61,065 nt of DNA from an uncultured Pseudomonadota bacterium. Lineage in GTDB: Bacteria > Pseudomonadota > Alphaproteobacteria > UBA9219. Position numbers and translations under genes: made by a program. How positions within the stretch are numbered: the stretch's first letter is position 1; the number at the start of each line of letters is the position of its first letter. The stretch is from positions 1 through 61,065 of the forward strand of contig CAIXLI010000110.1 of NCBI GenBank assembly GCA_903920205.1. The letters are read 5' to 3'. Below the pieces are notes generated by a model. The model was given only the letters and a program-made list of their open reading frames with translations. It made no database searches and was not told the origin of the DNA. Positions 4,406-52,203 of the stretch are shown piece after piece.

Positions 4406-5744
4406 CACTAGTGTCCGGTTAACTATCGAACAAATTCAGTTGGTTGGATGATGCCGCGAGTGGGGAATTGGACTGGACGTCAAAAAGAGCCTGTCCCAAT
4501 TGAGTTTTCTCGAAAGAATGAACCGATAAAATCTGTAGAAAAGTGTAGAGCGAGACGTCGAGCGCCAGCTCTTTTTTGATGATCGCTACCAGCACATAAA
4601 CGCACACCGCCGTCCATATTTGCGTCTTCACGGCATTCTCGGACGTGCCGTAAAAACGCTTGATGCGCAGATTTTGTTTGATCACTTGAAGAACAGTTCG
4701 ACCTGCCAGCGCTTTTTGTAGAGCGCGGCGATCATCTCCGCCGAAAGCGCGAAATTGTTGGTCAGGAACACGAGACGTTTTCCGGTTTTCGGATCGCAAA
4801 ACGAAACGCGCCGCAGGTGCTGCGGATAATCCTGCTTCGTATAAAATCCATCGAGCGCGATGCTCTGGTCGGCACCGACGCCTGTTGTTTTGTCCGACAC
4901 GGGATGTGAATAGACGCGGTGATACTTCATGTTGGTTTTTGTGCGCGTGACGAAGAACGCGCCCGCCTGATGAATGACGTAAAGTCTGCGGAAATCGACA
5001 TAGCCGCGATCCATAACATAAATGGCTCCGGCTTCCGGTGTGATCAAATCCAAGGCGGGCGCATCGCCCATCTTGCCGTCAGAAACATGAATAAAACTGG
5101 GGATATTACCGCGCAGGTCGAGCAGCGTGTGCATTTTGACGGCGGCTTTGGTTGAACGAAAATCAGCCCACGGAAACAGCGAAAGGCATAAATCGATTGT
5201 TGTGCTGTCGAGCGCATAGACCGTGTTGGCGAGGTCGAGGCCAATGTCGTCCTTCACATAAAGTTTGCGCGCGCGTTTGATGAGGACGGTGGCAAGATCA
5301 AACCATATGCGCCAGTCGCGCAGTTCGTTGGCATCAGCCAACGTCGATTTAGCGACCGGCTCGCGCAATCCCATGCCGTACAGTTTTGTGGGCTGTGCTC
5401 CGAGGCAGGCTTCAATGTCGCGCAGACTCTCGCGATATGTCACCTGCGCAAAGGCCATGACGCGAAAATGTTCCGTGCATCGAAGCGTCCGGACGCGAAC
5501 ATCGCCGCCATACTTTCGGACAATGCGATCAAAACTCGTCCACGGCACAAAATCCATCACTTGTGAAAAGAGGGTCTGGCCTACGTGCATCGTGACATCC
5601 CCAATTGGAAAAACCAAAATTGGGGAAGATGTTACCGCCAAAGTCCCAACGCGACTTCAAATCGACACCAAAAAAAACACCTCAAAAACCCTTGTGTACC
5701 AAGCCTAACTTGCAAAACTACCCGCGCTTAACCGGACAGTAGTG
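4406..5744 (-). mobile_element. IS4-family insertion sequence (1339 bp)
   Basis: 17-bp terminal inverted repeats CACTAGTGTCCGGTTAA (4406-4422) and TTAACCGGACAGTAGTG (5728-5744), 1 mismatch; 9-bp target duplication GCTCAATAT at 4397-4405 and 5745-5753. Confidence 0.93.
4419..5590 (-). pseudogene. IS4-family DDE transposase, frameshifted
   Basis: 'ALDSTTIDL', 'MDRGY' and Y-R-E motif 'YKKRWQVELFFK'; AAG TGA TC near 4683 instead of AAG TGG ATC splits it into ORFs 4682-5641 and 4419-4799 ('IKQNLRIKRFYGTSENAVKTQIW'). Confidence 0.88.
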
Positions 5745-13575: not shown

Positions 13576-14517
13576 CTAGATGTTCACAAAACCAAGCCAG
13601 CGCAGGATGGATTGCTGGATTATATCCTGCGTCGCCTTGTCCGTCCGGTAAACTTGGCAAACAACGCCTTCCGGACGTTCGATCAGCCGCCCGAACTCCG
13701 CCGAGGCTTCGTCGCGCACAAGCGCTAACCGCCTCTCGACAAAATGTTCGGGCATCTGCGCCGCTAGCATAACGCTTGGATCATGAAAACGGAAGATGGG
13801 GTCTGGGGCAAAATGACGACAATGGGCGATCATTAAATCCTGTGCCCATTTTGCTAGGGAAGTTGTTGGGCTCAGGGCTTCGATGGCGGGCAAAGCCATG
13901 TTGATCGGCCATGTCGCGTTTAACGGCACAAAACGCATCGGCAGGCCTAGCCGCATCACGGTATCGACCGCGAAAGGGTCGCTGGCGATGTTAAAATCGG
14001 CACCGGGCATTTCTGTCCAGAGGGAGTCGAGCTTACCCCCCAGCATCGTTACCCGCGCTATTGTGTCTTTTAGTGCTTCGCCCAGAGCTAGCGCCGTTGC
14101 CGCAAAGTTGCTTGCAGGGCCGATGATGAAATAATCGAGTGCGCCGTGTATGTGGGCAAGTTTTTGAAGCGCTAGAGCCATGTCTTGAGGGGACGAGGGG
14201 GGGGCGGCGGCGCGGGTGCTTGGCGGAAATTCAAGATTGCAGAGCCCGTTGCCCGAAGATTCTTGGCGCGGCACAACGACAGAATGATAAAGTTTGTGAT
14301 CGCGTTGCGGTTTTTCAAGCCCGACGAGCAGGGGGATATCGTCGCGCCCTACCAGAGAAAGAACGCGGGCTGTATTATCGGCAACCCCCGCCAGCGATGT
14401 GTTGCCATAGGACGCCACGACACCCGCCAACGGCAATCCCGCCAAAGCCGCAAGCCACAAGGTTATCGCATCATCGCGCCCTGTATCGCAGTCGATAATA
14501 AAGGGGCGCAACGACAT
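13576..14517 (-). CDS. Nucleoside hydrolase (IU-NH family)
   Basis: N-terminal DxDxGxDD (DCDTGRDD), 'GN', 'ADFN..SDP', 'HDP'. Confidence 0.88.
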   Translation of the reverse strand: MSLRPFIIDCDTGRDDAITLWLAALAGLPLAGVVASYGNTSLAGVADNTARVLSLVGRDDIPLLVGLEKPQRDHKLYHSVVVPRQESSGNGLCNLEFPPSTRAAAPPSSPQDMALALQKLAHIHGALDYFIIGPASNFAATALALGEALKDTIARVTMLGGKLDSLWTEMPGADFNIASDPFAVDTVMRLGLPMRFVPLNATWPINMALPAIEALSPTTSLAKWAQDLMIAHCRHFAPDPIFRFHDPSVMLAAQMPEHFVERRLALVRDEASAEFGRLIERPEGVVCQVYRTDKATQDIIQQSILRWLGFVNI

Positions 14518-14526
14518 GGGGTGAAC

Positions 14527-15750
14527 CTAGCGAGCAACAAGACGCAAATGCGGGGGATTGTTAACGCGATTCAGGATGTTGACCATAGGGGTGTCGGGAC
14601 AGACGTCCATCATTTCGGAAATGGTGGGACCCGGCGTGAAGCTTTTCAGGGGTAAAATTATGTCCGTTAATTCATGGACGCTCTTACAGAAATCAATGTT
14701 CGCTTGAATGACGCGTGATTTGAACTCTGTAACCGCATGAGCGGAAATTTTAAAATTCCTAGCGATTTCCTTATTCGATAACATGAAAGAAGGAAGGCGT
14801 CCAAAGCTGCCGTCTTTGTGTTTGACGACAAAGCCATCAAAGAAATGGTCGCGGGGCGTGACGACATCGACCAAGGCATTGGTATAATTGACGCCGACAA
14901 CCAGGGGGATTTCTTTTCCTTCGTGCCTGATTTTGGCGCGTTCTTCCGGCGTAGCTACAGAAAAACACGTGGCGATGCCGACCAAATCTCCTTCGTTAAA
15001 GACGCCGCCTTTTTCCATTTCCTTAAATATCCAAAGCAAGGTTTTGGCACGGCGAACATTGTCTTCAATGAGGATAATGGGAACCCTGTGCGGGTTGTTT
15101 CCACGCATTTTATGAAGTTTTTCTCTGACGTTGCTGATTTGTGCGTCGATTGCAACGTGTCCGGGTCTTCCGACAAAGCCCATTTCTTCTCCATCGTGAG
15201 AAAAGTGGCGGGAAAACCCAATCTCGCTGAATTCGCCCGTTGCTTCCGAGGCGAGGAACACATCCTTGTGAATCATGTCGTCGAGCGAAATAAATAAAGG
15301 CTTCTGTTGGTTGTCGGCACCCTTCTTGAGGAGGGCTTCCGCTTGACGAATAACGGCACTGGCCAACGAATCCGCGCTGTGAAAATGAATGTGGGTGCCG
15401 TGACTGGTCGGATGGGGGAGACTGTATTGTTCTTCGTAGGCTAGGTGGCTTGCTTGTGCGCTGACGATTTCATGCCCCCACTTTTCATAGGCTTTTTCCA
15501 GAATCGCAGTGAAATGTTCGAGCGTCAGGGAACTGTTCCGAAGAGAGGTACATTCCTGACTGCTAAGAGAAAAAAATTTTCTCAGGCCTTGCGTTGCAAA
15601 CCACGCATCGGTGCGAATGATTAAGGTAAGAAGGTTCTGTGGTGTTGATATACTCCCATTCCGAAAATGGGTATGGGTAATAATAGGAGACTCTTCGTGA
15701 CGAAAACGATCAACTTTGTGAATAGCAGGGGAGCGGAGGAGTGCTGACAT
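14527..15750 (-). CDS. Hypothetical protein, possible phosphoribosyltransferase fold
   Basis: 407-aa AT-richer ORF; 'PIILIEDNVRRAKTL' resembles the type I PRTase PRPP-binding loop. Confidence 0.5.
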   Translation of the reverse strand: MSALLRSPAIHKVDRFRHEESPIITHTHFRNGSISTPQNLLTLIIRTDAWFATQGLRKFFSLSSQECTSLRNSSLTLEHFTAILEKAYEKWGHEIVSAQASHLAYEEQYSLPHPTSHGTHIHFHSADSLASAVIRQAEALLKKGADNQQKPLFISLDDMIHKDVFLASEATGEFSEIGFSRHFSHDGEEMGFVGRPGHVAIDAQISNVREKLHKMRGNNPHRVPIILIEDNVRRAKTLLWIFKEMEKGGVFNEGDLVGIATCFSVATPEERAKIRHEGKEIPLVVGVNYTNALVDVVTPRDHFFDGFVVKHKDGSFGRLPSFMLSNKEIARNFKISAHAVTEFKSRVIQANIDFCKSVHELTDIILPLKSFTPGPTISEMMDVCPDTPMVNILNRVNNPPHLRLVAR

Positions 15751-16038: not shown

Positions 16039-16977
16039 TTACGCCTTCGGCTTCTTGACGACGTCCATCCTCCGTAGCGGCGGCATATAGAGCAGCAGGG
16101 CGGCGGCGACGTAGATGGAGGAGTAGGTTCCGACGAAGATGCCCCATGTCAGGGCGGCGGAGAAATTGATGAGGGTCTGGCCGCCCATAAAGACGAGGGG
16201 AAGCAAGGCCAGCAGGGTCGTTCCTGCTGTCATCGTCGTTCTGGACAGGGTTTGGTTAACGGAAGCGTTGATGATAGAGCGGAGATCGGTGGCTTTCTGA
16301 CGGCGAAGGGTCTCGCGGATGCGGTCGAAGACCACCACGGTATCGTTGATCGAATAGCCCGCCAGAGTCAGAAGCGCGGCCACCGCAGTCAGGTTAAAAT
16401 CAAGATGCAAAACAGAGTAAAGGCCGACGGTGACAAGAACATCGTGGAAGGTGGCGATCAGTGCCGCTAGGCCAAATTGCCATTCGAACCGCACAGCGAC
16501 ATAAAGCGCGATCGCCAGCATCGCAAGAACGGTAGCAAGAATACCCGCATGAAGCAGTTCGGTGCCGACTGTGGGGCCTACGACTTCGACGCGGCGATAT
16601 TCATAAGACGCGCCCAATTTGTCGCGCACGGATTGAATAGCTTTCATCTGCGCGGCTTCGTCGCCTGCTTGGCGCTGAATGCGGATAAGAACGTCGTCGG
16701 GCGCACCGAACTGCTGTAAGGCGACTTCGCCTAGATTAAGCGTGGCAAGGTCGCTGCGCAGGGCGGCATCGTCGACCGCTTGGGGCGCTTTGGCTTCGAT
16801 CAGGATGCCTCCCTTGAAATCGATGCCCAGATTCAGGCCATTGATGAACAACGAGGCGATTGTGATCAGCATGAGCAAAATCGTTACGCCAAACGCCCAC
16901 CAGCGTTTGGCGACGAAGTCTATGGTCGTATCGTTCGGGATGATGTGAATCGGGCGCAAAAACATAGGTCTAACCAC
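16039..16977 (-). CDS. secF: Protein translocase subunit SecF
   Basis: 'LNLGIDFKGG', 'VGPTVG.EL', 'HDV', 'GYSINDTVVVFDRIRE', 'TLSRT', 'GTYSSIYVA'. Confidence 0.95.
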   Translation of the reverse strand: MVRPMFLRPIHIIPNDTTIDFVAKRWWAFGVTILLMLITIASLFINGLNLGIDFKGGILIEAKAPQAVDDAALRSDLATLNLGEVALQQFGAPDDVLIRIQRQAGDEAAQMKAIQSVRDKLGASYEYRRVEVVGPTVGTELLHAGILATVLAMLAIALYVAVRFEWQFGLAALIATFHDVLVTVGLYSVLHLDFNLTAVAALLTLAGYSINDTVVVFDRIRETLRRQKATDLRSIINASVNQTLSRTTMTAGTTLLALLPLVFMGGQTLINFSAALTWGIFVGTYSSIYVAAALLLYMPPLRRMDVVKKPKA

Positions 16978-17034
16978 AAGAGAAAAGGGTTAGACGACAT
17001 AGCATTGATTGTCTGAATCCCGCAACCCTGTTCG

Positions 17035-17748
17035 TTAATGCGCAGCAACCGGAGGCGGCGGGGGCAGGGCGGCGAACACGACATGCGCGGTTAGGCCCAT
17101 TTTTTGCGCATGATCCTGCGTTTGCGCCGAATCGGGCGCTGCTGCCAAAGTGGCGTTTGCCAACATGGGGTTTTTGCCGAACATGCGGAAGGGGGGCGAT
17201 TCTTCCAGGTCGAAAGATATCTGGGCGATACGATACCCGCGCCCTGGCAAAGTCGCGTTCAGCGTCGCCAGTTGGTCTCCCGCGTCTTTCAGGATACGGG
17301 TGCGAAGGGCGGCCTTGGCTGCTTCCGTTTCGCCAAGCGTGGGGGCGAAGTCGAGCGCACCGACGGATATCTGCATTCCCGCTTTGCTGGTTTTCTTGAG
17401 TGTATCAGCAAGGCCGTTCAGCGTAGATTCGGGCAGTCTGGCGTCGAAAGCGACGCTCCAGCGTTCCATGCCTGTCTGATCTTGCGCACGCGTAAAGCCA
17501 GTCAGACGCCAATCGGCTTTGGCGGCGTCGTTCACGGCTTTGATCATATCGGCGCGTAGAGAACCGGCATTGGCGGCGGTGACAGCGGCTTCCACAGTCA
17601 AAACGACATGGGCTGTTTTTGTCACGACCCAATCTTCGGCGGACAGGGTGAACGAAACCGTGTCGTCAGGCCTGGGCGGTTCTTGTGCCAAAGCGGACGC
17701 GACAAAACAAAAAACAAAAAGAAAGCCAAGTAAGCTTCGAGAGATCAT
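17035..17748 (-). CDS. Exported SIMPL/DUF541-like protein
   Basis: Signal peptide (ALA-Q); alternating alpha/beta pattern resembling SIMPL; starts 30 bp after icmO. Confidence 0.55.
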   Translation of the reverse strand: MISRSLLGFLFVFCFVASALAQEPPRPDDTVSFTLSAEDWVVTKTAHVVLTVEAAVTAANAGSLRADMIKAVNDAAKADWRLTGFTRAQDQTGMERWSVAFDARLPESTLNGLADTLKKTSKAGMQISVGALDFAPTLGETEAAKAALRTRILKDAGDQLATLNATLPGRGYRIAQISFDLEESPPFRMFGKNPMLANATLAAAPDSAQTQDHAQKMGLTAHVVFAALPPPPPVAAH

Positions 17749-17777
17749 GGCAAATCCCCTATAAGAAAAATCAGTGT

Positions 17778-20228
17778 TTATTTGCCGTCGGTCTTCCCGC
17801 GCAAGCCTTCGTTCATCTGCTGTGCCGACTGCGCAAGGAACGATTTGATGCTTTCGGGCAGTTCGACCGACGAGAAATCGACGGCTTCGTCGTCGTCGCC
17901 CAGCGTAGGGATAATTGCCGAGAGATCGGCATCGGTTCCGGCAAAGGCCGGCGTGCCGTTTGCCGCCGCATAACCAGTGCCGCGCTCGACATCCTCGATA
18001 GCAAATTCGTCGCCTTCGTACATCGGCGGCAAACCGGCGCGCAAGGCATCGCGTTCTTCGTCCGACATATCGTCGATGAAAGGCGCTGTTGTCCGTTTGG
18101 TGGACACGGGCGCGTCCAGCGAGTCGAAATCGTCCGAAACGGTGTAGGGCTGCTTGCCATTTCCGTTTTTCGCGGCGGCGCTCTGCGCGTCGCCAGAGGA
18201 CGCAGCTTTGGGGGCGGCGGGAAGAACGCCCATGGACGCAACGCTGACGATGCCCATGTCGACCGCAGACATGTTTGCCGTAGTCGCGGCTTTGACCATT
18301 TTGACAAGTGTTCCGATTTCGGGTCCTTCCTTGACGGCGCCCCCAGCACCTGCTGCTGTCCAGTCTTTGTCCTTAAGGCGCGAGGCCAATTCCAACATCA
18401 CGCGATCACGCGCTTCGGTCGATTTCGTAACGCCAGGCACCGGCAAGAAGCGATGCACGCGCAGCGCCTTGGCTTTTTCCGGCACGGCATAGAACATTTG
18501 TGTCTTGTAGGCCCAATCGCTGAAGATCAAATGCGCTTCGCCTTCGCGTTGCCCGCGCAAATGGTCGTAGTCGACGCGTTGGCGGTTCGTATAACTTGCC
18601 TGACGATCGTCTTGGAAAGGCGCGTTCATAAACATGTTAGAGACGGTGTTGGTCGGCGCGCTAAAGCCCTTGGTTTCCATGACCCATGCCGTGCCGCCGT
18701 GGCGGGTAACAAATTCTTTGGTATCGGTCGGATCTTCGATGCGGCCCAGAATTTTCAAGTTACAGTTGCCGACGATGGATTTGGCTTCCTGCTTGACGCG
18801 TTTTTCCATCGAGGGCAAATCCTGCGCCGCGAACACCAAAGAGAAGCCAAGAGACCGCGCCTGTGCCGCCATGACCGCCATACCTGCGGCGGTATAGTAA
18901 CCGACTTCGTCAAACACGGTCATAAAGGAGGAGTTGGAGCGGGTTTGCTTGCTGCCGACGGCGTTTTCCCATCCGCCTTCGACGGTGTTGCCCAGCGTGG
19001 CACCCATCATGCCTTTCAGGCACGACGCGACGATTTTACCGAGGTTGGCGGCTTCGTCACCGGATTTTTCCAGAGCGGGAATCAAAACGACCATGATGCG
19101 GCGGTTCAGCACGACGTCCAGAACGTCAATATCGGCAAGCTGCGCTTTAAAGATATAGCCGTATTCGTCGGCCAAAGACTGCATCGAACGCGTAAACTGC
19201 ATCGACAGATAGCCGTGCTGCTGACGCGCTACTTGCAAATCGTACATCGGCTGGTCTGGCGATGGCGGGCGTTCGTTGCCTTCATCGTCGAAGGCCGCGG
19301 CGACGAAGCCAGGAAGCGTGTTCAGATAGCCTTCCAGCCCGTGCACGATGCGCGCGGGCAAGGTTTGATCGCGCGATAGGCGGATAATCGGCTGGAGTTC
19401 CAAATGGTCGCGGACGACGCCGACATCCAGCAACATGCCTTGCTTGTCGCGCCGGAAAGTCAGCGCGGGCATCAGGGCGAACATCAAGGCGACGGCGCGT
19501 TCTTTCCACATCGCGTTGTCGCCACCGGCATCCGGCATCAAATTAACGACAAGGTTGGCAAGATAGGAGGCCGAACCGTTGGAAAACGGGTTCATCGAAT
19601 TGGACATCGATCCGTCGTCCGAGTTTCCGGTCATATAGTTCAAAACCAAAATATCGTCGTCGCGTCCAAAGCGGCGGGTCAGCGAATAGAGCGATGCCCA
19701 CAAATCGGTATCGGCTTTACCGTCGGTATAGGAAAAGCCGGAACCCCAGGCCAGCGTGTTGGTGACCATGGATTTCAGGCCTTCGGTTTTGCCCGAACCT
19801 GTTGTGCCGAGGTAAAGGATATGCGTGCGCGCGTCGGTGTTGGTCAGCCATACTTCGCGCCGGAAATCGTCGTCGTCCACATCCGAAACGTTGCCAAGAA
19901 ACAAAATGCCTTCGGACCTTCCTCCGCTGGTCTTGCCGGGCGGGGGGTTATGAGGATCGGGCATATTGGCATAGCGGGGAATTTTAAAAGGCAGCAGAAA
20001 AGGGCGGTTGAGAACCCACCGGAAATAAAAATACAGAACTACGGCCGCAAGATCGGCACAGGCTCTGACTTCGGGATCGGCAAAAAACATCGCGGCAACT
20101 GAACCATAGGCAACCGAAGCTATGATCTCCGGCTTGGAGATTATAGCCGCAATGCGCACCGAAACGGGACGCACATCGCGCAACATGGTGCGCTGGGCAA
20201 CTTGATGTTTTTTAAGAAGAATAGGCAT
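17778..20228 (-). CDS. icmO: Type IVB secretion coupling ATPase, IcmO/DotL (TrbC-like)
   Basis: Walker A 'GTTGSGKT', 'DGKAD', 'FGRDDDILVLNYMTG', 'MWKERA', 'LEKSGDEAANLGKI', Walker B 'FDEVGYY', 'AQARSLGFS', 'QREGEAH'; long acidic C-terminal tail. Confidence 0.85.
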   Translation of the reverse strand: MPILLKKHQVAQRTMLRDVRPVSVRIAAIISKPEIIASVAYGSVAAMFFADPEVRACADLAAVVLYFYFRWVLNRPFLLPFKIPRYANMPDPHNPPPGKTSGGRSEGILFLGNVSDVDDDDFRREVWLTNTDARTHILYLGTTGSGKTEGLKSMVTNTLAWGSGFSYTDGKADTDLWASLYSLTRRFGRDDDILVLNYMTGNSDDGSMSNSMNPFSNGSASYLANLVVNLMPDAGGDNAMWKERAVALMFALMPALTFRRDKQGMLLDVGVVRDHLELQPIIRLSRDQTLPARIVHGLEGYLNTLPGFVAAAFDDEGNERPPSPDQPMYDLQVARQQHGYLSMQFTRSMQSLADEYGYIFKAQLADIDVLDVVLNRRIMVVLIPALEKSGDEAANLGKIVASCLKGMMGATLGNTVEGGWENAVGSKQTRSNSSFMTVFDEVGYYTAAGMAVMAAQARSLGFSLVFAAQDLPSMEKRVKQEAKSIVGNCNLKILGRIEDPTDTKEFVTRHGGTAWVMETKGFSAPTNTVSNMFMNAPFQDDRQASYTNRQRVDYDHLRGQREGEAHLIFSDWAYKTQMFYAVPEKAKALRVHRFLPVPGVTKSTEARDRVMLELASRLKDKDWTAAGAGGAVKEGPEIGTLVKMVKAATTANMSAVDMGIVSVASMGVLPAAPKAASSGDAQSAAAKNGNGKQPYTVSDDFDSLDAPVSTKRTTAPFIDDMSDEERDALRAGLPPMYEGDEFAIEDVERGTGYAAANGTPAFAGTDADLSAIIPTLGDDDEAVDFSSVELPESIKSFLAQSAQQMNEGLRGKTDGK

Positions 20229-20320: not shown

Positions 20321-20336
20321 GTTAGTTTTTGGTTAA
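20321..20336 (-). promoter_or_regulatory. Near-consensus CtrA box upstream of icmO
   Basis: Minus strand TTAA-CCAAAAA-CTAAC versus consensus TTAA-N7-TTAAC (1 mismatch). Confidence 0.5.
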
Positions 20337-20367: not shown

Positions 20368-21195
20368 TCAACGGGTCCCGACGATGAAAAGACCTTTTTC
20401 GTCGGCTAATTGCCTGACGCGGTCGCGGTCGATCAAAAGGCTTCGTCCGGCTTCGGCAGCGATGCCGCGCAGGCCTGCTTGTTCTGCCGCTTCTATCGTG
20501 TCAGGTCCGATGGTGGGGAGGTCGAAACGGTCGTCTTGTTGGGGTTTTGCCATTTTGACTAGCACACCGCCTGCGCCTTCGCGGCGCAGGGATTTGCATC
20601 GGGCGAGCAGGGCGTCCGTGCCCTCGATCGCTTCGACTCCCAGCACGAGGCCTTGCTGCACGACGACAGATTGACCGACATCGGCGCGACCCAAGGCCTG
20701 CGCGACGGCGACGCCTCTGGCAATGTCCTGCTCCGCTTGGGTGTCGGGAGAGAGTGCGCCCAGACTTCCTTCGGGCATCAGGGTGCCGCCTAGAATATCC
20801 TGCACACCGATGACGTGTACGGCGCATTCTTGTTCAATGGCTTGGCCTACGGCTCGCAGAAGCGCGTCGTCGCCCAGAAGGTTCATCCCTATTTTGGCAA
20901 GAGCCTTGATCGCCAGCCAGTCAGGTTTTAACTCGCTCAGTGACGGACGCCGGACTCGACCGATCATCACGATTTCGACGATTTTCTCTGTTGCCGCAAG
21001 GTCGCGCAATTTACCGAATGCGCCCAAAGGCAGCCATGTATGGGGGGCGTCATCCGCGATGTCTTGGTCGGCTTGGCCTTCAAGGCAGACGACGTAAAAG
21101 TCGCGTCCCTGTGCGCGGCAAGCCTCGATCACGCGGCGCGGTGCTGTGCCGCCTCCAGCGATAATCCCAAGCTTGGGGTGCGGCGAAGCGTTCAT
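20368..21195 (-). CDS. lpxI: UDP-2,3-diacylglucosamine diphosphatase
   Basis: 'LGIIAGGG', 'GDDALL', 'DVGQSVVV', 'EAIEGTD', 'VKMAKPQQDDRFDLPTIG'. Confidence 0.93.
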   Translation of the reverse strand: MNASPHPKLGIIAGGGTAPRRVIEACRAQGRDFYVVCLEGQADQDIADDAPHTWLPLGAFGKLRDLAATEKIVEIVMIGRVRRPSLSELKPDWLAIKALAKIGMNLLGDDALLRAVGQAIEQECAVHVIGVQDILGGTLMPEGSLGALSPDTQAEQDIARGVAVAQALGRADVGQSVVVQQGLVLGVEAIEGTDALLARCKSLRREGAGGVLVKMAKPQQDDRFDLPTIGPDTIEAAEQAGLRGIAAEAGRSLLIDRDRVRQLADEKGLFIVGTR

Positions 21196-45040: not shown

Positions 45041-45356
45041 CCGACCTTCAGGGCTGACCTTCCGCTGAAGACGGGGCGTCGCCTCTTCGCAGCATTTTCC
45101 AAGCACAGAACAAGCCGCCCACAACCCTGGCGGGAACGGCATGACGCAACTCATTGAAAACGAGGAAACTTCATTCCGCCATCGTTCTGTTTCCTCGTTT
45201 CTTGTGGCGCAAAAACATTAATAAAAATTAATCATGTTTCAACAGAAGAAAGAGCAAAACGGTGAAACTAATTGACAAATAAGTAATTTCGCTGGAGAAA
45301 CGACACACGGCTATTGAGCCCAATTGTTGTCATGTAATAACATTATGATCAAGCGC

Positions 45357-48300
45357 ATGAAAAAGAAAAATGCATATAGTGCGGCGATTGTGGTTGCTCT
45401 TGTCGGCCTTTTGCTCGCAGGGGGCCACGTTTTCGCTGGCTCCGATAAAGACATCGCGCCACGCGGGTCGAGCTCTTTTTCCTATACGCCCAAAGGTTCT
45501 GAAGGCACTGGCATTGCGACGTCTGACCCTCTTTCCGCCTCCTATGATGCGACGACTGCCGACGAAGCCCCATCGCAAGATGAGCACAAGTCGGTAAGAG
45601 AAACGGCGGCTAAGATCCTTTACGCGATTTCAAAGCATCCGGTCGAACGCGGCGCTAAACCTGCCGAGTGGAAGATTCAACAGAACAAAGCGGCTGAAGC
45701 CGCACGCGCCGGTCACTATGGCGAAGCGTTGCCCGTTCTCCAACGTTTGCGCGCCGAGCATCCCGAAGATATCAGTGTCGCCAGCGACTATGCCGCCATT
45801 TTGGGTTGGGCAGGGCACGATGCCGATGCCGTTGCCGCCTACAAAACGTTGCCCACGGGCGTACGTCCCGATTATTTGGTCGACTCCATTGGTCACGCCT
45901 ACCGCAATTTGCATCAACCGGAGGAATCCTTGGCGATCTATCGCCTTGGTCTGCAGACCTATCCGATGAACCAAAATTTCGTGGCAGGCGAGATTCTCAG
46001 TTTGCTCGAAGCTGGTCACGGCAAGGAAGCCAAGGAACGCGCGCAAGCTGCCACCGATGCCTACGCGACGCCTTCGGATTCTTTGTCCTTGGCGATCAAA
46101 CTAGCTTTCCGTGCGGACGCCGTCTCTTTGGCGCGCGCTGGTCATTATAAGGAAGCCTTGGCTGAATTTGCCGTGCTTCACAAAAAATATCCTACCGATG
46201 ACGGTGTTTCCGGCGATTATGTCGCGGTCCTCAGCTGGGCGGGTCGGCACGCGGATGCGACGGCGCTTTACCGCACCTTGTCCGCAGGCGATCAGCCCGA
46301 TTACGTTTTAGATGCCGCCGCGCATTCCTATCGCGCTCTGCACCAGCCCAAACAGGCTTTGGATTTGTATCAGGCCGCTCTGAACAAGGCCCCCGATAAT
46401 GTCGCCTATGCCGTGGGGGTGATTTACAGCCTGTCCGATCTAGGACGCGGCAAAGAGGCGATGGCCTTCGCCGAAGCGCAGCTCGCCAAGCATCCCGAAA
46501 GACCGGCGGCCTTGGTCAAGGCCTATGTGTCGGTCAAACATCGCTATGCCATCGACCTCGCGCGCGCTGGTCATTTCGATCAGGCCTTGAGCATCTTACG
46601 TGCCATGCGCGCGCAGGATCCTTCCGACATAACCCTGCGCATGGACATCATCGCGGTGTTAAGCTGGGCGGGGCGTCACGAGGAAGCCATCAAGGAATAC
46701 CAGAAAATCGAGGGACGGAAGTTCCCCGATTATGTTTTGGAAGCAGTCGGCGGCTCCTACCGCGCCTTGCATCAGTCCGGAAAGGCTTTGGTAGTCTATC
46801 GTCACGGATTGAGCCAATCTCCAGGCAATGCGATTTTTGCGGCGGGAGATGTCCGCTGTCTCGATGATTTGGGGCGCTACGCCGAAGGACAATCTCGTGC
46901 CGAGGCTTTCACGCGCCGCTACGGCGATCATCTTGACGTTCTGTTGGCGGGTGGCGAAGCGTCGAATTTCAACGACCAATCGATAGTCGCGCTTAATTTC
47001 TATCAACATGCGCAGGCGCTCTCGTCGGAAAACAAAGAAGCTATGCGCGGCGCGATCCATGCCGAAGCCAGCTTGGGCGCGGCTCAGGTGGCGTTGACGC
47101 ATGCCGACAGACACCCTGGGTTGATGAACGGGGAAGAATACCGTGCTCTTGTTGGCGAAGCGGATCAGGCTTTGGTGCGTTGGGGACCGTTGGAGCCCGT
47201 CAGCGAAGCGACACGCTTTGCCGCGACGGATCGTGCTCTCGCCTCGCTCAATACTCATATCGGCGCATGGACGGCGTTGCAAGACCCCGCAGTCTATCCG
47301 AATATTCAACGCGCACGCTTCGACCGCTTGGTCGCCTTGCGCGACCGTCAACGCATGCAAGACGTCGTGGACGATTACAACGCGCTGGCACGAGAAGGCA
47401 TCGAAGTGCCTAACTATGCGCTGGAGCCTGTCGGCGAGGCCTATTTGTATTTGCGCCAGCCGGAGATCGCCCGCGATATTTTCTTGAAGGCCTTGCAGAC
47501 AGACCCCGACGACTTTGAAACGCGGCGTCTGCTGGCCTATGCTTATCTTGAGGCCGATCAATATGACGAGGCCTTTGCGACGATCGACAAGGTGCGCGAA
47601 GATGAACCTGTCTGGGTTTATCTGAAAGGCGAACCGGAACGGCTTCCCAACACTGGCCATGTGGTTGCCGACCATTCGGTGACTGAACTTGATGCCGGAG
47701 AGCTGCGCCTTTACAGCGACCTTTTGGAAGATGCAGACAAGCGTTTGACGCCCATCGTCCAAGCAGGGCCTTTCGATGCGCGGAACCGCGCCGCCGCAGG
47801 CAATATTTACTTTGCGCGTGGCTGGCCCCGCAAGGCGATGGAGCACTATGATATCGGCCTCGCCATTCAGGACGGTCACGATGTGGGGAACGAAACAGGC
47901 ATGGTTTTTGCCAACCTCGCGTTACAGAATTTCCAAAAAGCCGAAGAACAGGCACGGGATTTGCGCGTGAGGTTCCCCGAAAATCTCGGCGTTCAACGCG
48001 CCAACCGCGCATGGGACGTTCACGCGATGGCGGAATTGGACGTTCATGCGGGCTATAGTTTTGCGCCGTCCGGTGGTGCTTCGGCGGGCGATGTGCCGCA
48101 CGGGCAGGGGTTCAATGTCGGGGCTACGCTCTACTCCGCGCCGTTGGCCCATAACTGGCGTTTGTTCGCGGGCGAGGATTTCGCGCATGAACACCAGCCT
48201 AATGCCGAGGGTGTAATCGACACGACTCGTTCCACGGCAGGCGTTGAGTACCGTAAAGGCGACGTGACGGCTACCGTCGCGCCGACCTTCAATACCTACG

Positions 48301-48926
48301 ACAGCCGCGAACGCGTTGGCGCTAACGGCACGGTGAAATATACCTTTAATGATATCTGGAGCGCGGGGATCGCGGCGGAACTGTTTTCTGCGACGACGCC
48401 GCTGCGCGCGCTTAACGCCGGAGTGACGGCTAATCGGTATGACGTCAACGCCCAGTGGCGGCAGAGCGAGTCGCGTCAGGTTTCGGTGGACGCCTATGTC
48501 ATGCCGTTCTCCGACGGAAACTTCCGCACCGTTGAAGAGGCTGAATATCTCGAACGCCTTTACACCCATCCCAAGTTCAAGGTGGAAGCCGAAGTCAATC
48601 TGGCCTCCACGCAGAACAACAAGGATGAAAACCGTTTGTACTACAATCCCTCGTTGGATCTGACGGCTTTGGCGGGATTGCGGGCGACGCATACGCTGTA
48701 TCATCGTTACGAGACATTGTACGAGCACAGCCTGTTGGCGATGCCCGGGTTCTACGCGCAACAGCACTATGGAACATCGCCCGCATGGGTCGTGCGCTAT
48801 GAACAGCGCGTGCATTACAACGATACGCTGGATGCGGGCGCAGGCGTGAATTACGCGCATCAGAATTATAATGGGTCGGCGGAAGACGCCGTGAGTTTGA
48901 CAGTCGATGTTGTGGAGCGTTTCTGA
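45357..48926 (+). CDS. pgaA: PNAG export porin/TPR protein with triplicated N-terminal module
   Basis: Signal peptide, TPR-like helices, 'RARFDRLVALRDR', 'RGWPRKA', 'TPLRAL', 'YYNP', C-terminal Phe; first gene of pgaABCD; start could be 45345. Confidence 0.9.
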   Translation: MKKKNAYSAAIVVALVGLLLAGGHVFAGSDKDIAPRGSSSFSYTPKGSEGTGIATSDPLSASYDATTADEAPSQDEHKSVRETAAKILYAISKHPVERGAKPAEWKIQQNKAAEAARAGHYGEALPVLQRLRAEHPEDISVASDYAAILGWAGHDADAVAAYKTLPTGVRPDYLVDSIGHAYRNLHQPEESLAIYRLGLQTYPMNQNFVAGEILSLLEAGHGKEAKERAQAATDAYATPSDSLSLAIKLAFRADAVSLARAGHYKEALAEFAVLHKKYPTDDGVSGDYVAVLSWAGRHADATALYRTLSAGDQPDYVLDAAAHSYRALHQPKQALDLYQAALNKAPDNVAYAVGVIYSLSDLGRGKEAMAFAEAQLAKHPERPAALVKAYVSVKHRYAIDLARAGHFDQALSILRAMRAQDPSDITLRMDIIAVLSWAGRHEEAIKEYQKIEGRKFPDYVLEAVGGSYRALHQSGKALVVYRHGLSQSPGNAIFAAGDVRCLDDLGRYAEGQSRAEAFTRRYGDHLDVLLAGGEASNFNDQSIVALNFYQHAQALSSENKEAMRGAIHAEASLGAAQVALTHADRHPGLMNGEEYRALVGEADQALVRWGPLEPVSEATRFAATDRALASLNTHIGAWTALQDPAVYPNIQRARFDRLVALRDRQRMQDVVDDYNALAREGIEVPNYALEPVGEAYLYLRQPEIARDIFLKALQTDPDDFETRRLLAYAYLEADQYDEAFATIDKVREDEPVWVYLKGEPERLPNTGHVVADHSVTELDAGELRLYSDLLEDADKRLTPIVQAGPFDARNRAAAGNIYFARGWPRKAMEHYDIGLAIQDGHDVGNETGMVFANLALQNFQKAEEQARDLRVRFPENLGVQRANRAWDVHAMAELDVHAGYSFAPSGGASAGDVPHGQGFNVGATLYSAPLAHNWRLFAGEDFAHEHQPNAEGVIDTTRSTAGVEYRKGDVTATVAPTFNTYDSRERVGANGTVKYTFNDIWSAGIAAELFSATTPLRALNAGVTANRYDVNAQWRQSESRQVSVDAYVMPFSDGNFRTVEEAEYLERLYTHPKFKVEAEVNLASTQNNKDENRLYYNPSLDLTALAGLRATHTLYHRYETLYEHSLLAMPGFYAQQHYGTSPAWVVRYEQRVHYNDTLDAGAGVNYAHQNYNGSAEDAVSLTVDVVERF

Positions 48927-50908
48927 TGATACGTCTTTTCGCTCGTTTGGTTCTTGTGTCGCTGTTCCTAGCAGGGGCGGGCGCTTCCTCTATGGCTGCG
49001 CCGCCTCCCCCGGGGGCGTTCCTCGCGCTGTGTTATCACAACGTCGAAGACGCCGATCCCGATCAGAATTACGACGGCGTAACGACGGCTAAACTTGTCG
49101 AACAACTCGCCTGGCTTCAGGACCAAGGCTATAAGGCGGTCTCCATTGACGATCTGTTGGCGGCGCGCGCGGGCAAAAAAACCTTGCCGGAAAAAGCCAT
49201 GTTACTGTCGTTCGACGACGGTTATGAAAGCTTCTATACCCGCGTTTACCCGATTTTGAAGGCGTTCCACTTTCCTGCCATCGTCGGCTTGGTCGATGAA
49301 TGGATGAAGGGGCAGGGCGGCGACGACGCGCATTCGGGGGATACCGTTCGCTATGGTAACACGACCTTGCCGCGCAGCGCCTTTTTGACATGGGCGCAGG
49401 TGCGCGAGATGCAAAAATCCGGCTTGGTCGAAGTGGCCTCGCATTCACACGCGCTTCATAAAGGCATCCTCGGCAATCCGCAGGGCAATCAAGAACCTGA
49501 CGCCGTGACGGCAGCCTATGACCCGAAAACCGGCACCTACGAACTTGCCGAACATTACGCGCGTCGTTTGCAAGACGATGCCGCCGCTTCACTGAAGACG
49601 ATCAAAAAAGAAACCGGCAAAGCGCCCCGCGTGATGGTCTGGCCCTATGGCGCCTATAACGAACTCGGTATGATGATTGAGGGCGCGCAAGGCCTGCCGA
49701 CGATGCTGTCGCTGGAAGACGGCTACGCCACGGTCCGCGATCTAAGAAGCGTGCCGCGCATGCTGGTGAAGGACGATCCGAACATGATCAAATTTGCCGT
49801 TCATGTTCGTCAGACCGACAAAGTCACGCCGATCCGCGTGGTTCAGGTCGATCTGGATTACGTCTATGATCCCGATCCCGCGCAGGAAGAGCGTAATCTC
49901 GACGCGCTTGTTTCGCGCATCTTCAAATTAAAGATCAATACGGTTTTCTTACAGGCCTTCTCCGATCCCACCGCTTCGGGCATGGCGTCGTCGGTGTACT
50001 TCCCCAATCGTTTCCTGCCGGTGCGCGAGGATTTGTTCAACCGCGTCGCGTGGCAGCTTGCCACGCGTGCGCAAGTCAAAGTCTATGGCTGGCTGCCTGT
50101 GCTATCCTTCGATTTCGGCGACGGCGTCGCCAAGGTTCAGGCGTGGAGCGAGGCCTCCCATACGGCGTCGTCCGACCCCAAAGCCTATCACCGCGTCTCG
50201 CCGTTTGATCCCGAAGGACGCCGCCGCATTATCGGCCTTTACGAGGATCTAGGCCGCCATGGCCCTATCGACGGGTTGCTGTTCCACGACGACGCGATGC
50301 TGTCGGATTTTGAGGATGCAAGTCCTTTGGCGCTGGAAGCCTATAAAGCGGCTGGTTTCCCCGCGTCGATCTCGGACATTCGCGCCAATCCCGATACGCT
50401 GGCGCGGTGGACTTCGTTCAAGACCGATATGCTGATCCAGTTCACGCAAGAGCTGACCTCCCATGTGGCGGCCTATCGCGCGCCGCTCAAGACCGTGCGC
50501 AATATCTATGCGCCGCTGCTTTTGAATCCCGGCAGCGAGGAATGGTTCGCGCAAAGCTATGATCGCTTCTTGCAGTCTTACGACTATGTCGCGGTCGAAG
50601 CGATGCCGGATATGGAAAATGTCCCCTCGGGCGATCAAGATGCATGGCTTGAGAAGCTCGTCTCGGTCGTCGCGCAAAAACCCGAAGGTTTGAAGCACAC
50701 CGTGTTTGAGCTTCAATCCGTCGATTGGCGCATTAAGGACAGCGGACGCGCCATTCCGACAGAAAAACTTGGGGGGCAGATGAATTTGCTCGCACGGCGC
50801 AGGGCGTTGAATTTCGGCTATTATCCCGACGACTTCATCGCTAATGTGCCGGACGCCGAAGCGCTTCATAAAGATTTCTCACTGCAAACTTATCCGTACA
50901 CGCCATGA
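48926..50908 (+). CDS. pgaB: PNAG N-deacetylase/glycoside hydrolase
   Basis: CE4 'LSFDDGY', 'SHSHALH', 'WPYGAY'; C-domain 'VDLDYVYD', 'FHDDA', 'FELQ', 'YYPDDF'. Confidence 0.95.
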   Translation: MIRLFARLVLVSLFLAGAGASSMAAPPPPGAFLALCYHNVEDADPDQNYDGVTTAKLVEQLAWLQDQGYKAVSIDDLLAARAGKKTLPEKAMLLSFDDGYESFYTRVYPILKAFHFPAIVGLVDEWMKGQGGDDAHSGDTVRYGNTTLPRSAFLTWAQVREMQKSGLVEVASHSHALHKGILGNPQGNQEPDAVTAAYDPKTGTYELAEHYARRLQDDAAASLKTIKKETGKAPRVMVWPYGAYNELGMMIEGAQGLPTMLSLEDGYATVRDLRSVPRMLVKDDPNMIKFAVHVRQTDKVTPIRVVQVDLDYVYDPDPAQEERNLDALVSRIFKLKINTVFLQAFSDPTASGMASSVYFPNRFLPVREDLFNRVAWQLATRAQVKVYGWLPVLSFDFGDGVAKVQAWSEASHTASSDPKAYHRVSPFDPEGRRRIIGLYEDLGRHGPIDGLLFHDDAMLSDFEDASPLALEAYKAAGFPASISDIRANPDTLARWTSFKTDMLIQFTQELTSHVAAYRAPLKTVRNIYAPLLLNPGSEEWFAQSYDRFLQSYDYVAVEAMPDMENVPSGDQDAWLEKLVSVVAQKPEGLKHTVFELQSVDWRIKDSGRAIPTEKLGGQMNLLARRRALNFGYYPDDFIANVPDAEALHKDFSLQTYPYTP

Positions 50909-52203
50909 CCAGAAAAATCTTCGGCCTCTCAATCATCCTGTTCCTTGTCCTTTACGGACTTGTGACCGGCTATATGCTCGACTTCATTTTCCTGTATCCG
51001 CTGTTCATGTCGGTGATGTGGATTTTGGGCGGCGTGTACTTCTATTTCCACTGGGAACGCGGCACACCAAGCCCGGAAACAGCGCCGACTGTTTCTGAAT
51101 ATCCTTTCGTGTCGATTTTGGTGCCTTGCTATAACGAAAGCGCCAATGTTGAGGAGACGATCGAAGTCGCCAATGCGCAAAATTGGCCCGATTTCGAAAT
51201 CATCGCCATCAATGACGGCTCCAGCGACGATACCGGCGAAAGATTGGAACGTCTGGCGCAGGAATATCCCCGCCTGCGCGTGATCCAATTTGCCGCCAAT
51301 CAGGGCAAAGCGATGGCGCTGCGTATGGGCGCTTTGGCGGCCCGCGGCGAGTACATCGTTTGCATCGACGGCGACGCGCTTATGCATGTCAACGCCACGG
51401 CGTATCTTGTGCGTCCGATGGTCGAAAATCCCCGCGTTGGCGCCGTTACCGGCAATCCCCGTGTTCGCACACGCTCAACCCTTGTCGGCAAGGTCCAGGT
51501 CGGCGAGTTTTCCTCGATTATCGGCCTTATCAAACGCGCCCAGCGTATTTACGGGCATTTGTTTACGATATCGGGCGTCATCTGCTCGTTCCGCCGCCGC
51601 GCTTTGCATGATTGCGGCTATTGGGACATCAACATGATTACCGAGGACATCGATATCAGCTGGTCGCTGCAACTGCGGCATTGGGCCATTCAGTATGAAC
51701 CGAACGCCTTGTGCTGGATATTGATGCCCGAAACGCTGCGCGGCTTGTGGACTCAGCGCGTGCGATGGGCGCAGGGCGGCGCGGAGGTGTTCTTCAAGAA
51801 CATCGTGCGCATCTGGAAATGGATGGACCACCGCATGTGGATCCTGATCGTCGATTTCGTCCTCAGCACCGTGTGGGCCTATTCCTACCTTCTGTCGCTG
51901 ATCTTGTGGTCTCTGGGTAAGTTCTTTGTCATGCCTGCGGCTTTGAACGTGCCGACCATTTTCCCGCCCGCTTTCTGGGGGTTGATCTTGGCCTTCGTCA
52001 ACTTGCTGCAATTCGTGACGGCGATGACGATTGAAACGCGTTACGAAAATAAATTGTTGCGCCTTTTGGGCTGGACCATCTGGTATCCTCTCGTGTTCTG
52101 GATCATTTCCATGTTCACGATGCTGGTGGCTGTTCCCAAAGCCTTCTTTAAATCCCGCACCAAACGCGCCGCGTGGGGATCGTCAGACAGAGGTTTCAGA
52201 TGA
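50905..52203 (+). CDS. pgaC: PNAG synthase (GT2)
   Basis: 'PCYNE', 'NDGS', 'DGD', 'TGNPR', 'TEDID', QRVRW (QxxRW). Confidence 0.96.
   Translation: MTRKIFGLSIILFLVLYGLVTGYMLDFIFLYPLFMSVMWILGGVYFYFHWERGTPSPETAPTVSEYPFVSILVPCYNESANVEETIEVANAQNWPDFEIIAINDGSSDDTGERLERLAQEYPRLRVIQFAANQGKAMALRMGALAARGEYIVCIDGDALMHVNATAYLVRPMVENPRVGAVTGNPRVRTRSTLVGKVQVGEFSSIIGLIKRAQRIYGHLFTISGVICSFRRRALHDCGYWDINMITEDIDISWSLQLRHWAIQYEPNALCWILMPETLRGLWTQRVRWAQGGAEVFFKNIVRIWKWMDHRMWILIVDFVLSTVWAYSYLLSLILWSLGKFFVMPAALNVPTIFPPAFWGLILAFVNLLQFVTAMTIETRYENKLLRLLGWTIWYPLVFWIISMFTMLVAVPKAFFKSRTKRAAWGSSDRGFR

Follow-up and report, generated by a model that had tools for sequence, protein, structure and literature searches.

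A DotL-type coupling ATPase and scattered type IVB secretion genes in an uncultured alphaproteobacterium related to Micavibrio

The window analysed here is a stretch of 61,065 nucleotides, contig CAIXLI010000110.1 (C110) of assembly GCA_903920205.1, from an uncultured alphaproteobacterium of the UBA9219 lineage whose metagenome-assembled genome (MAG) measures 2.32 Mb, is 96% complete and comprises 228 contigs. Its central gene is dotL (icmO), which encodes the coupling ATPase of a secretion system of type IVB, occurs once in the genome and lies between lpxI and two further genes, ORF237 and secF (Table 1). Legionella DotL (PDB 6SZ9) aligned to residues 7-599 of the protein (E 9e-132, 444 bits), and the TrbC model scored 366 bits against a cut-off of 800. 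We take GTTGSGKT (residues 141-148) to be the Walker A motif and MTVFDE (residues 436-441) to be Walker B; with full-length homology and both motifs intact, the protein belongs to the DotL/TrbC coupling proteins of I-type type IV secretion systems (T4SSs). The tail beyond the Legionella match is acidic (22 D/E vs 5 K/R in residues 701-790) and, across 111 homologues, contains short conserved islands near residues 732-746, 762-769 and 788-811; from its sequence it is predicted to bind partner proteins. An earlier interpretation made from the DNA letters (hereafter the sequence-only reading) had described an intact DotL with a long acidic tail and gaps of about 30 and 57 bp to the next two genes, and the open reading frames (ORFs), motifs and tail agree with it, the gaps measuring 29 bp (dotL-ORF237) and 57 bp (ORF237-secF). 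The named neighbours of the protein in sequence space come from uncultured alphaproteobacteria, isolate UBA9219 (67% identity) being one of them, and from Micavibrio aeruginosavorus HCB189 (52%); these genes are already annotated in databases, JGI naming homologues of this DotL IcmO. The composition of dotL is host-like: its GC content and GC content at third codon positions (GC3) are 0.57 and 0.67, compared with 0.57 and 0.69 for secF and 0.57 and 0.67 for secA, and the GC3 of dotA is lower (0.53).

The sequence-only reading had called this DotL stand-alone, which is correct locally but not genome-wide. No other tra or dot gene was recognised by eye in the ORF map of the window, which is not a full profile scan, and matches of the dot profile searches of the genome were confined to contigs other than the window's. 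Seven such contigs hold dotA, dotB, dotC, dotD, dotG, dotH, dotI, dotM, dotN, dotO, icmT and a weak dotF. Contig C98 carries transglycosylase-dsbG-dotD-dotC-dotB-icmT followed by pilL, N, O, P, Q and R, and C63 carries dotH-dotG-dotF and then secA, with dotM and a 151-residue ORF (ORF151) 50 kb away. Two copies of dotI are located on C216, a single dotA on C2, dotO on C47, dotN with a 129-residue pilin-like gene on C81, and a dotE-like gene, homologous to the Micavibrio gene in the dotE position, on C32. DotB scored 406 bits on dot_icm_DotB vs 240 on plasmid TraJ; DotO was missed by the PF12846 profile and found by tblastn; the DotN match reached 84.6 bits against a cut-off of 100; and dotF, in its expected place after dotG, matched weakly (E 3e-6, under the cut-off). 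The outer-membrane core (DotC, DotD, DotG, DotH and the weak DotF), the ATPases DotB and DotO, the inner-membrane proteins DotA, DotI and IcmT, and the coupling partners DotM and DotN are thus represented. Since most pieces lie inside contigs, flanked by housekeeping genes, the scattering reflects more than assembly breakage, although dotO and the C98 block are found at contig ends. The genome therefore holds a nearly complete chromosomal I-type secretion system with scattered genes. This supports the sequence-only reading's proposal that an alphaproteobacterium has a type IVB system that is both domesticated and dispersed, for which it had named dotA, dotB, dotC, dotD, dotM and dotO as genes to search for; all six were found.

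Several further genes accompany these pieces. An IncI-type thin pilus operon adjoins dotD-C-B-icmT (G000:C98:4706-12873), and PilN was found in 19 of 24 DotL carriers; after icmT, Micavibrio keeps only a TcpQ-domain gene of the pil genes. Tandem dotA paralogues, two or three in number, occur in Micavibrio (G041:C1:2277728-2285621, L086) and in all of the four other searched genomes. The pilin-like gene on C81 (G000:C81:18936-19325), duplicated in tandem in three relatives (L054, L056, L057), is a TraR-like candidate, its family matching TraQ/TraR weakly (DUF6750, E 0.007; best two of 214 ORFs, E about 0.1). TraQ and TraR are described as VirB2-like pilins in the available part of a plasmid study (PMC6112013). 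Exported ORFs and a 274-residue ORF without a family match at G000:C63:85463-88457 (L098), found beside dot genes in relatives including Micavibrio, are further candidate parts.

Another candidate is ORF151 (G000:C63:16235-16690), which remained with dotM here while dotL sits elsewhere. In relatives, the order at dotL loci is dotN-dotO-dotM-ORF-dotL where these genes are present, and 79 such loci contain dotM in 44 cases, the small ORF151 family in 38 and dotO in 22. The family, which forms 938 clusters at 50% identity and has no Pfam or NCBIfam match, consists of proteins of about 150-190 residues, for which a six-strand domain in the cytoplasm and a single membrane helix are predicted and whose C-terminal motif is conserved. 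We surveyed an even sample of 401 genomes of the class, counting as DotL carriers those with E under 1e-40; there were 27, one of them unpublished (G077), which contributes one to each of the counts 27, 20, 17 and 11. The ORF151 family occurred in 20 of the 401 genomes, all DotL carriers and 17 with the gene beside dotL, and in none of the 374 non-carriers, a co-occurrence that is not an independent test because dotL neighbours served to build the profile and the carriers are kin. Among 910 plasmid ORFs, its top four matches were genes of the trbA/dotM-trbC/dotL interval (E 1e-7 to 0.02), led by pOXA-48 TrbB (E 1e-7), which alone remained when the membrane helix was left out (E 3e-4). In a fold search the top match reached Z 7.3 (51 residues, rmsd 1.9) and many PH-like domains scored Z 5-6; searches of PDB sequences with the ORF151 and ORF237 profiles returned nothing useful. 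ORF151 is probably a cut-down TrbB that has lost the DsbC domain, and its family would be a better candidate machine part than ORF237, considered below. Transfer of pCTX-M3 is reported to require trbB (PMC6112013).

DotL is widely conserved, matching in 39 of 41 relatives and in all 29 good ones; additional matches are split pieces. In a tree of 94 rows, 53 chromosomal DotL rows, Micavibrio included, formed a single clade (support 100) with three other alphaproteobacterial rows outside it, and a mixture-model tree of 29 rows recovered the same clade (support 99); both trees were quick and have long outgroup branches. Carriers in the main clade mostly have small genomes (1.1-2.9 Mb). The clade lies within a wider IcmO-like group that includes gammaproteobacterial Dot systems and plasmids of Xanthomonas, Pseudomonas, Methylibium, Bosea and Rhizobium, and it is placed with that group away from enterobacterial TrbC, the comparison that the sequence-only reading had suggested. 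An approximately unbiased (AU) test rejected a single clade of these DotLs and the gammaproteobacterial Dot set (p 2e-5), a grouping picked after the trees were seen, with Piscirickettsia and mostly unnamed rows standing for the gammaproteobacteria and Legionella's own sequence left out. We also observed a second alphaproteobacterial DotL lineage (G173, G298, G186; L122-L124) with 47-49% identity and larger genomes, which falls outside the main clade in the 94-row tree and is its weak sister in the 29-row mixture tree. IcmO-like genes occur in addition on Bosea, Rhizobium and Methylorubrum megaplasmids typed as non-mobilisable (L093, L175, L186); on the Bosea megaplasmid, no dot gene is annotated within 20 kb of the IcmO-like gene.

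Micavibrio aeruginosavorus offers a cultured counterpart. Strain HCB189 has dotM-ORF-dotL, three tandem dotA genes and the plasmid-like orders dotI-H-G-F-E-pilin-N-O and dotD-C-B-icmT, with dotI placed by means of the table for strain ARL-13; the order of its main cluster is that of pOXA-48 traM to traU and traH to traK. The icm/dot genes of M. aeruginosavorus (GMV_383, GMV_2421-2440) include an orthologous DotL of the same clade and the same accessory genes. They form three clusters, with three dotA and no PilN found, whereas the present genome has one dotA, a dotL split from dotM and a full pil operon. Judged by these genes, Micavibrio has the same type IVB system. The available text of the ARL-13 genome paper reports no evidence for secretion systems of type III or type IV, and its supplementary RNA-seq table names icmO, icmB, icmL, icmT and dotB (PMC3189940). 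From attack to attachment phase, the values listed there rise from 0.3 to 5 for icmB, 0 to 3.2 for dotB, 1 to 6.4 for icmL and 0.6 to 2.9 for icmT, and GMV_2424, which by order and size corresponds to the pilin-like gene, is very strongly expressed in attack and attachment alike (76.5 and 158.6; PMC3189940). A machine for attachment or feeding, acting as a pilus, a junction or a route for uptake of prey content with little effector export, would suit a pilin-like gene that is by far the highest expressed of the Micavibrio cluster in both phases, as well as the tripling of dotA. We nevertheless find it very unlikely, given that the coupling ATPase ranks with the best conserved parts and keeps both its motifs intact and its tail conserved, which export would require. 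Among the papers listed by literature searches, none dealt with type IVB secretion either in Micavibrio or elsewhere in this order (Pasternak et al. 2014, ISME J, was not covered), and the accessible portion of a 2025 review ties no such system to Micavibrio-type epibiotic predation.

Compared with Legionella Dot/Icm, the system shares the DotL core, DotM, DotN, DotO, DotB, DotA, DotC/D/G/H and IcmT, two DotI-like genes, a chromosomal location and a long acidic DotL tail. It differs in its alphaproteobacterial host, its far more scattered genes, its separate DotL clade and its retention of a TrbB-like gene and, mostly, an IncI-type pilus. The sequence-only reading had pointed out that the C-terminal tail of DotL binds adaptors in Legionella; a tail of that style is not supported here, since the alignment stops at residue 599, the tails are not alignable, and IcmW was found in none of 41 genomes, where the positive control matched, with a Piscirickettsia IcmW query giving no match either. 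Without IcmW, and with a DotL clade that the trees and the AU test separate from gammaproteobacterial Dot, the system would stand outside the Legionellales Dot/Icm family in the strict sense while working like a type IVB machine. Plasmids with type I mating pair formation (MPF-I; IncI1 of R64 type, IncL/M pOXA-48 and pCTX-M3) share the trbA-trbB-trbC order, seen as dotM-ORF-dotL in most relatives, the traH-K and traM-U orders kept in Micavibrio, the pilL-R genes and the lytic transglycosylase. In contrast to these plasmids, the genes here are chromosomal, single-copy and inherited, with no linked relaxase or primase; the TrbB-like protein lacks the DsbC domain, and DotL is 28-31% identical to enterobacterial TrbC.

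On balance, we favour the view that DotL is the coupling ATPase of a scattered chromosomal type IVB system, and that this system probably delivers proteins into a cell it touches, with bacterial prey, as in the related Micavibrio, as the likeliest target. What the data show is the gene inventory, its scattering and conservation, the one DotL clade and the patchy relaxases; secretion and lifestyle are what we infer. An ancestor of many small-genome alphaproteobacteria would have acquired an I-type conjugative plasmid and kept its tra, trb and thin-pilus genes while losing dependence on a relaxase. The cluster would then have been broken up, into three loci in Micavibrio and eight contigs in this genome, with dotL moving beside ORF237-secF in this genus alone. 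In the resulting machine, DotL, DotM, DotN and the cut-down TrbB-like ORF151 may form an inner-membrane coupling complex, in which the acidic DotL tail could stand in for IcmS/IcmW by bringing in substrates or lineage-specific adaptors. Power for the DotC/D/F/G/H channel would come from DotB and DotO, the IncI-type pilus may help to hold the target, and in this genus a CtrA-like box could time dotL to the cell cycle.

Several observations weigh against this interpretation. Injection of proteins is proposed by analogy, for an organism represented by an uncultured MAG, and to our knowledge the bacteria-killing T4SSs described so far are type IVA. The pilus part is not universal, PilN not being found in the two Micavibrio genomes. 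In the ARL-13 table, icmO is flat (4.3 and 3.5), and the icm rise is no larger than that of the housekeeping genes secA (0.4 to 5.6) and secF (0 to 3; PMC3189940). Moreover, relaxases are present: this genome has two mobC-MOBP pairs (about 250 residues) and one MOBQ gene, and MOBP matches occur in 16 of the 29 good relatives.

As an alternative, the domesticated machine could serve DNA transfer, moving either chromosomal DNA or small mobilisable elements. The I-type plasmid gene order, the retained thin pilus, lytic transglycosylase, DsbG and TrbB-like gene, and the short mobC-relaxase pairs of this genome and many relatives would fit such a machine. However, the three short relaxase genes lie on small contigs (C21, C86 and C25) of GC 0.47-0.52, compared with 0.53, in the company of regulator, integrase or cargo genes but without linkage to dot genes, and MOBP matches, some of them weak and partial, occur in 22 of 41 relatives at 0 to 12 per genome. 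No match to the pOXA-48 relaxase, MobA or primase was found in this genome, and NikB gave merely a 42-residue match (E 0.04). Among 17 DotL carriers picked for contiguity, MOBP was found in 4, MOBQ in 4 and MOBF in none, and all three were absent from 11, with plasmid controls matching and without MOBH, MOBC and MOBV among the classes covered. The MOBP, MOBQ and MOBF searches thus found no linked, co-inherited relaxase of the kind an MPF-I element would carry, nor are the dot genes clustered or foreign in composition, being dispersed among housekeeping genes with a host-like dotL GC3. We therefore consider DNA transfer as the function quite unlikely, and the sequence-only reading's view of a domesticated system agrees with these patchy, unlinked relaxases. 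Small mobC and short relaxase elements, common and variable in the order, could borrow the chromosomal machine. Going by what is generally known of T4SSs, protein export is indicated where the coupling ATPase is conserved and a relaxase is not.

The identity of the target is the weakest step of the proposed injection into prey, and prey is our best guess by analogy. An injector aimed at a eukaryotic host, a protist or an alga, in the manner of Legionellales Dot/Icm would be in line with Legionella DotL being the best structural homologue, with the mostly small genomes of the carriers and with ankyrin proteins in four of five carriers. The type IVB protein systems covered in the available part of one source also target eukaryotes (PMC11338181), a further point against prey. 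We regard a eukaryotic target as unlikely, because the only cultured member named among the matches (L074) preys on bacteria, no IcmW turned up in the 41 genomes and this genome has no ankyrin match, which together favour prey; the AU test, with its group chosen post hoc, also separates these DotLs from gammaproteobacterial Dot. A search for an ATP/ADP translocase matched in 0 of 41 genomes, but as it had no positive control this result is uninformative.

The genes beside dotL appear to be of a different kind. ORF237 has a hydrophobic N-terminal signal and no Pfam match of its own, but many of its homologues match PF04402 (SIMPL), and the best matches of its model are BP26 (E 1e-5) and a SIMPL-like protein (E 1.6e-5). 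The predicted two-domain fold and signal peptide place it in the SIMPL/BP26 family (PF04402; PDB 4HVZ, 7C50), which it resembles in fold and export signal; it differs as a divergent subfamily, and it has no tie to secretion systems. The sequence-only reading had proposed it as a possible component of the machine. Same-strand position with short gaps, presence in 38 of 41 relatives, adjacency to dotL in 18 of the 19 genomes of this genus that have a match, and one outside locus (L058) where it lies about 6 kb before dotL would accord with a dedicated role for ORF237, together with secF. Yet the two genes are adjacent in none of 17 relatives outside the genus having both, 31 of the 47 ORF237 carriers among the 401 class genomes lack DotL, and 11 of the 27 DotL carriers lack ORF237; it usually lies beside a glutathione S-transferase gene (in 18 of the 24 loci inspected). 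Co-occurrence thus largely refutes such a role, which we find scarcely credible. The dotL-ORF237-secF operon is a genus-level accident, and ORF237 and secF are likely bystanders of the secretion machine. A link to Sec export, considered from secF after dotL and secA after dotF, was dropped as the dotL-secF order is confined to the genus. The secF gene lies apart from secD, the sole other match in the genome being weak and on C33.

The CtrA-like box lies in the gap between lpxI and dotL and departs by one mismatch from TTAA-N7-TTAA, which we take to be the CtrA consensus. Of 19 loci from close relatives, 17 have the same motif (shuffled rate 0.12), and any such box occurs in 8% of 1668 upstream windows in this genome. 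Other lineages do not conserve the box ahead of dotM (8 of 18 Micavibrio-like loci, with no shared position and a shuffled rate of 0.27; 3 of 21 others), which makes it a genus-level trait. As a sequence motif, it is likely part of dotL's own promoter; sigma-70 and terminator scans were at chance level. Elsewhere in this genome, a perfect TTAA-N7-TTAA box stands upstream of the C81 pilin-like gene and of the dotE-like gene.

Table 1. Features at the dotL locus, in window coordinates
Feature	Position	Strand	Basis
secF (likely start ATG at 16962), genus-level neighbour	16039..16977	-	profile matches, locus comparison
ORF237, exported SIMPL/BP26-fold protein	17035..17748	-	homologue profiles, fold search
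dotL/icmO, type IVB coupling ATPase, 816 aa	17778..20228	-	profile and Legionella DotL alignment
DotL C-terminal extension, residues 601-816, variable, acidic	17781..18428	-	111 homologues
Walker B codons (residues 436-441), intact	18906..18923	-	homologue and Legionella DotL alignments
Walker A codons (residues 141-148), intact	19785..19808	-	kept in 111 homologues and Legionella DotL
CtrA-like box TTAAC-N6-CTAAC, in 139-bp lpxI-dotL gap	20321..20336	-	motif scan
lpxI, upstream housekeeping neighbour in genus	20368..21195	-	profile matches, locus comparison

Other parts of the window hold what we take to be one or more IS-like transposase genes of the IS4 family (4419-5641, 12 kb from the dotL locus) and a gene run presumably resembling a poly-N-acetylglucosamine (pga) operon (45324-52203). 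The slot between secF and galE (13576-15750) contains a nucleoside hydrolase gene and a low-GC (0.48) 407-residue ORF without a family; neither was found in 79 related loci, marking the slot as variable.

The interest of the locus thus lies in the genome-wide system and its link to Micavibrio rather than in the three-gene operon. Tentatively, and with rather less confidence than in the explanation favoured above, we suggest that a deep group of alphaproteobacteria with small genomes, Micavibrio among them, may have domesticated an I-type plasmid independently of Legionellales and turned it into a bacteria-attacking injector, whose distinct coupling complex would consist of DotL, DotM, DotN and a cut-down TrbB, without IcmW. 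I-type conjugation would then have been converted to chromosomal use a second, separate time and with another coupling complex, and about 20 uncultured families would gain a lifestyle marker. As the type IVB machine is conserved and expressed in a predator that can be cultured, the way in which Micavibrio-type epibiotic predators kill and feed becomes testable. If our interpretation is true, epibiotic predation would have its missing weapon in this system, and many uncultured families, this one among them, would be marked as predators.

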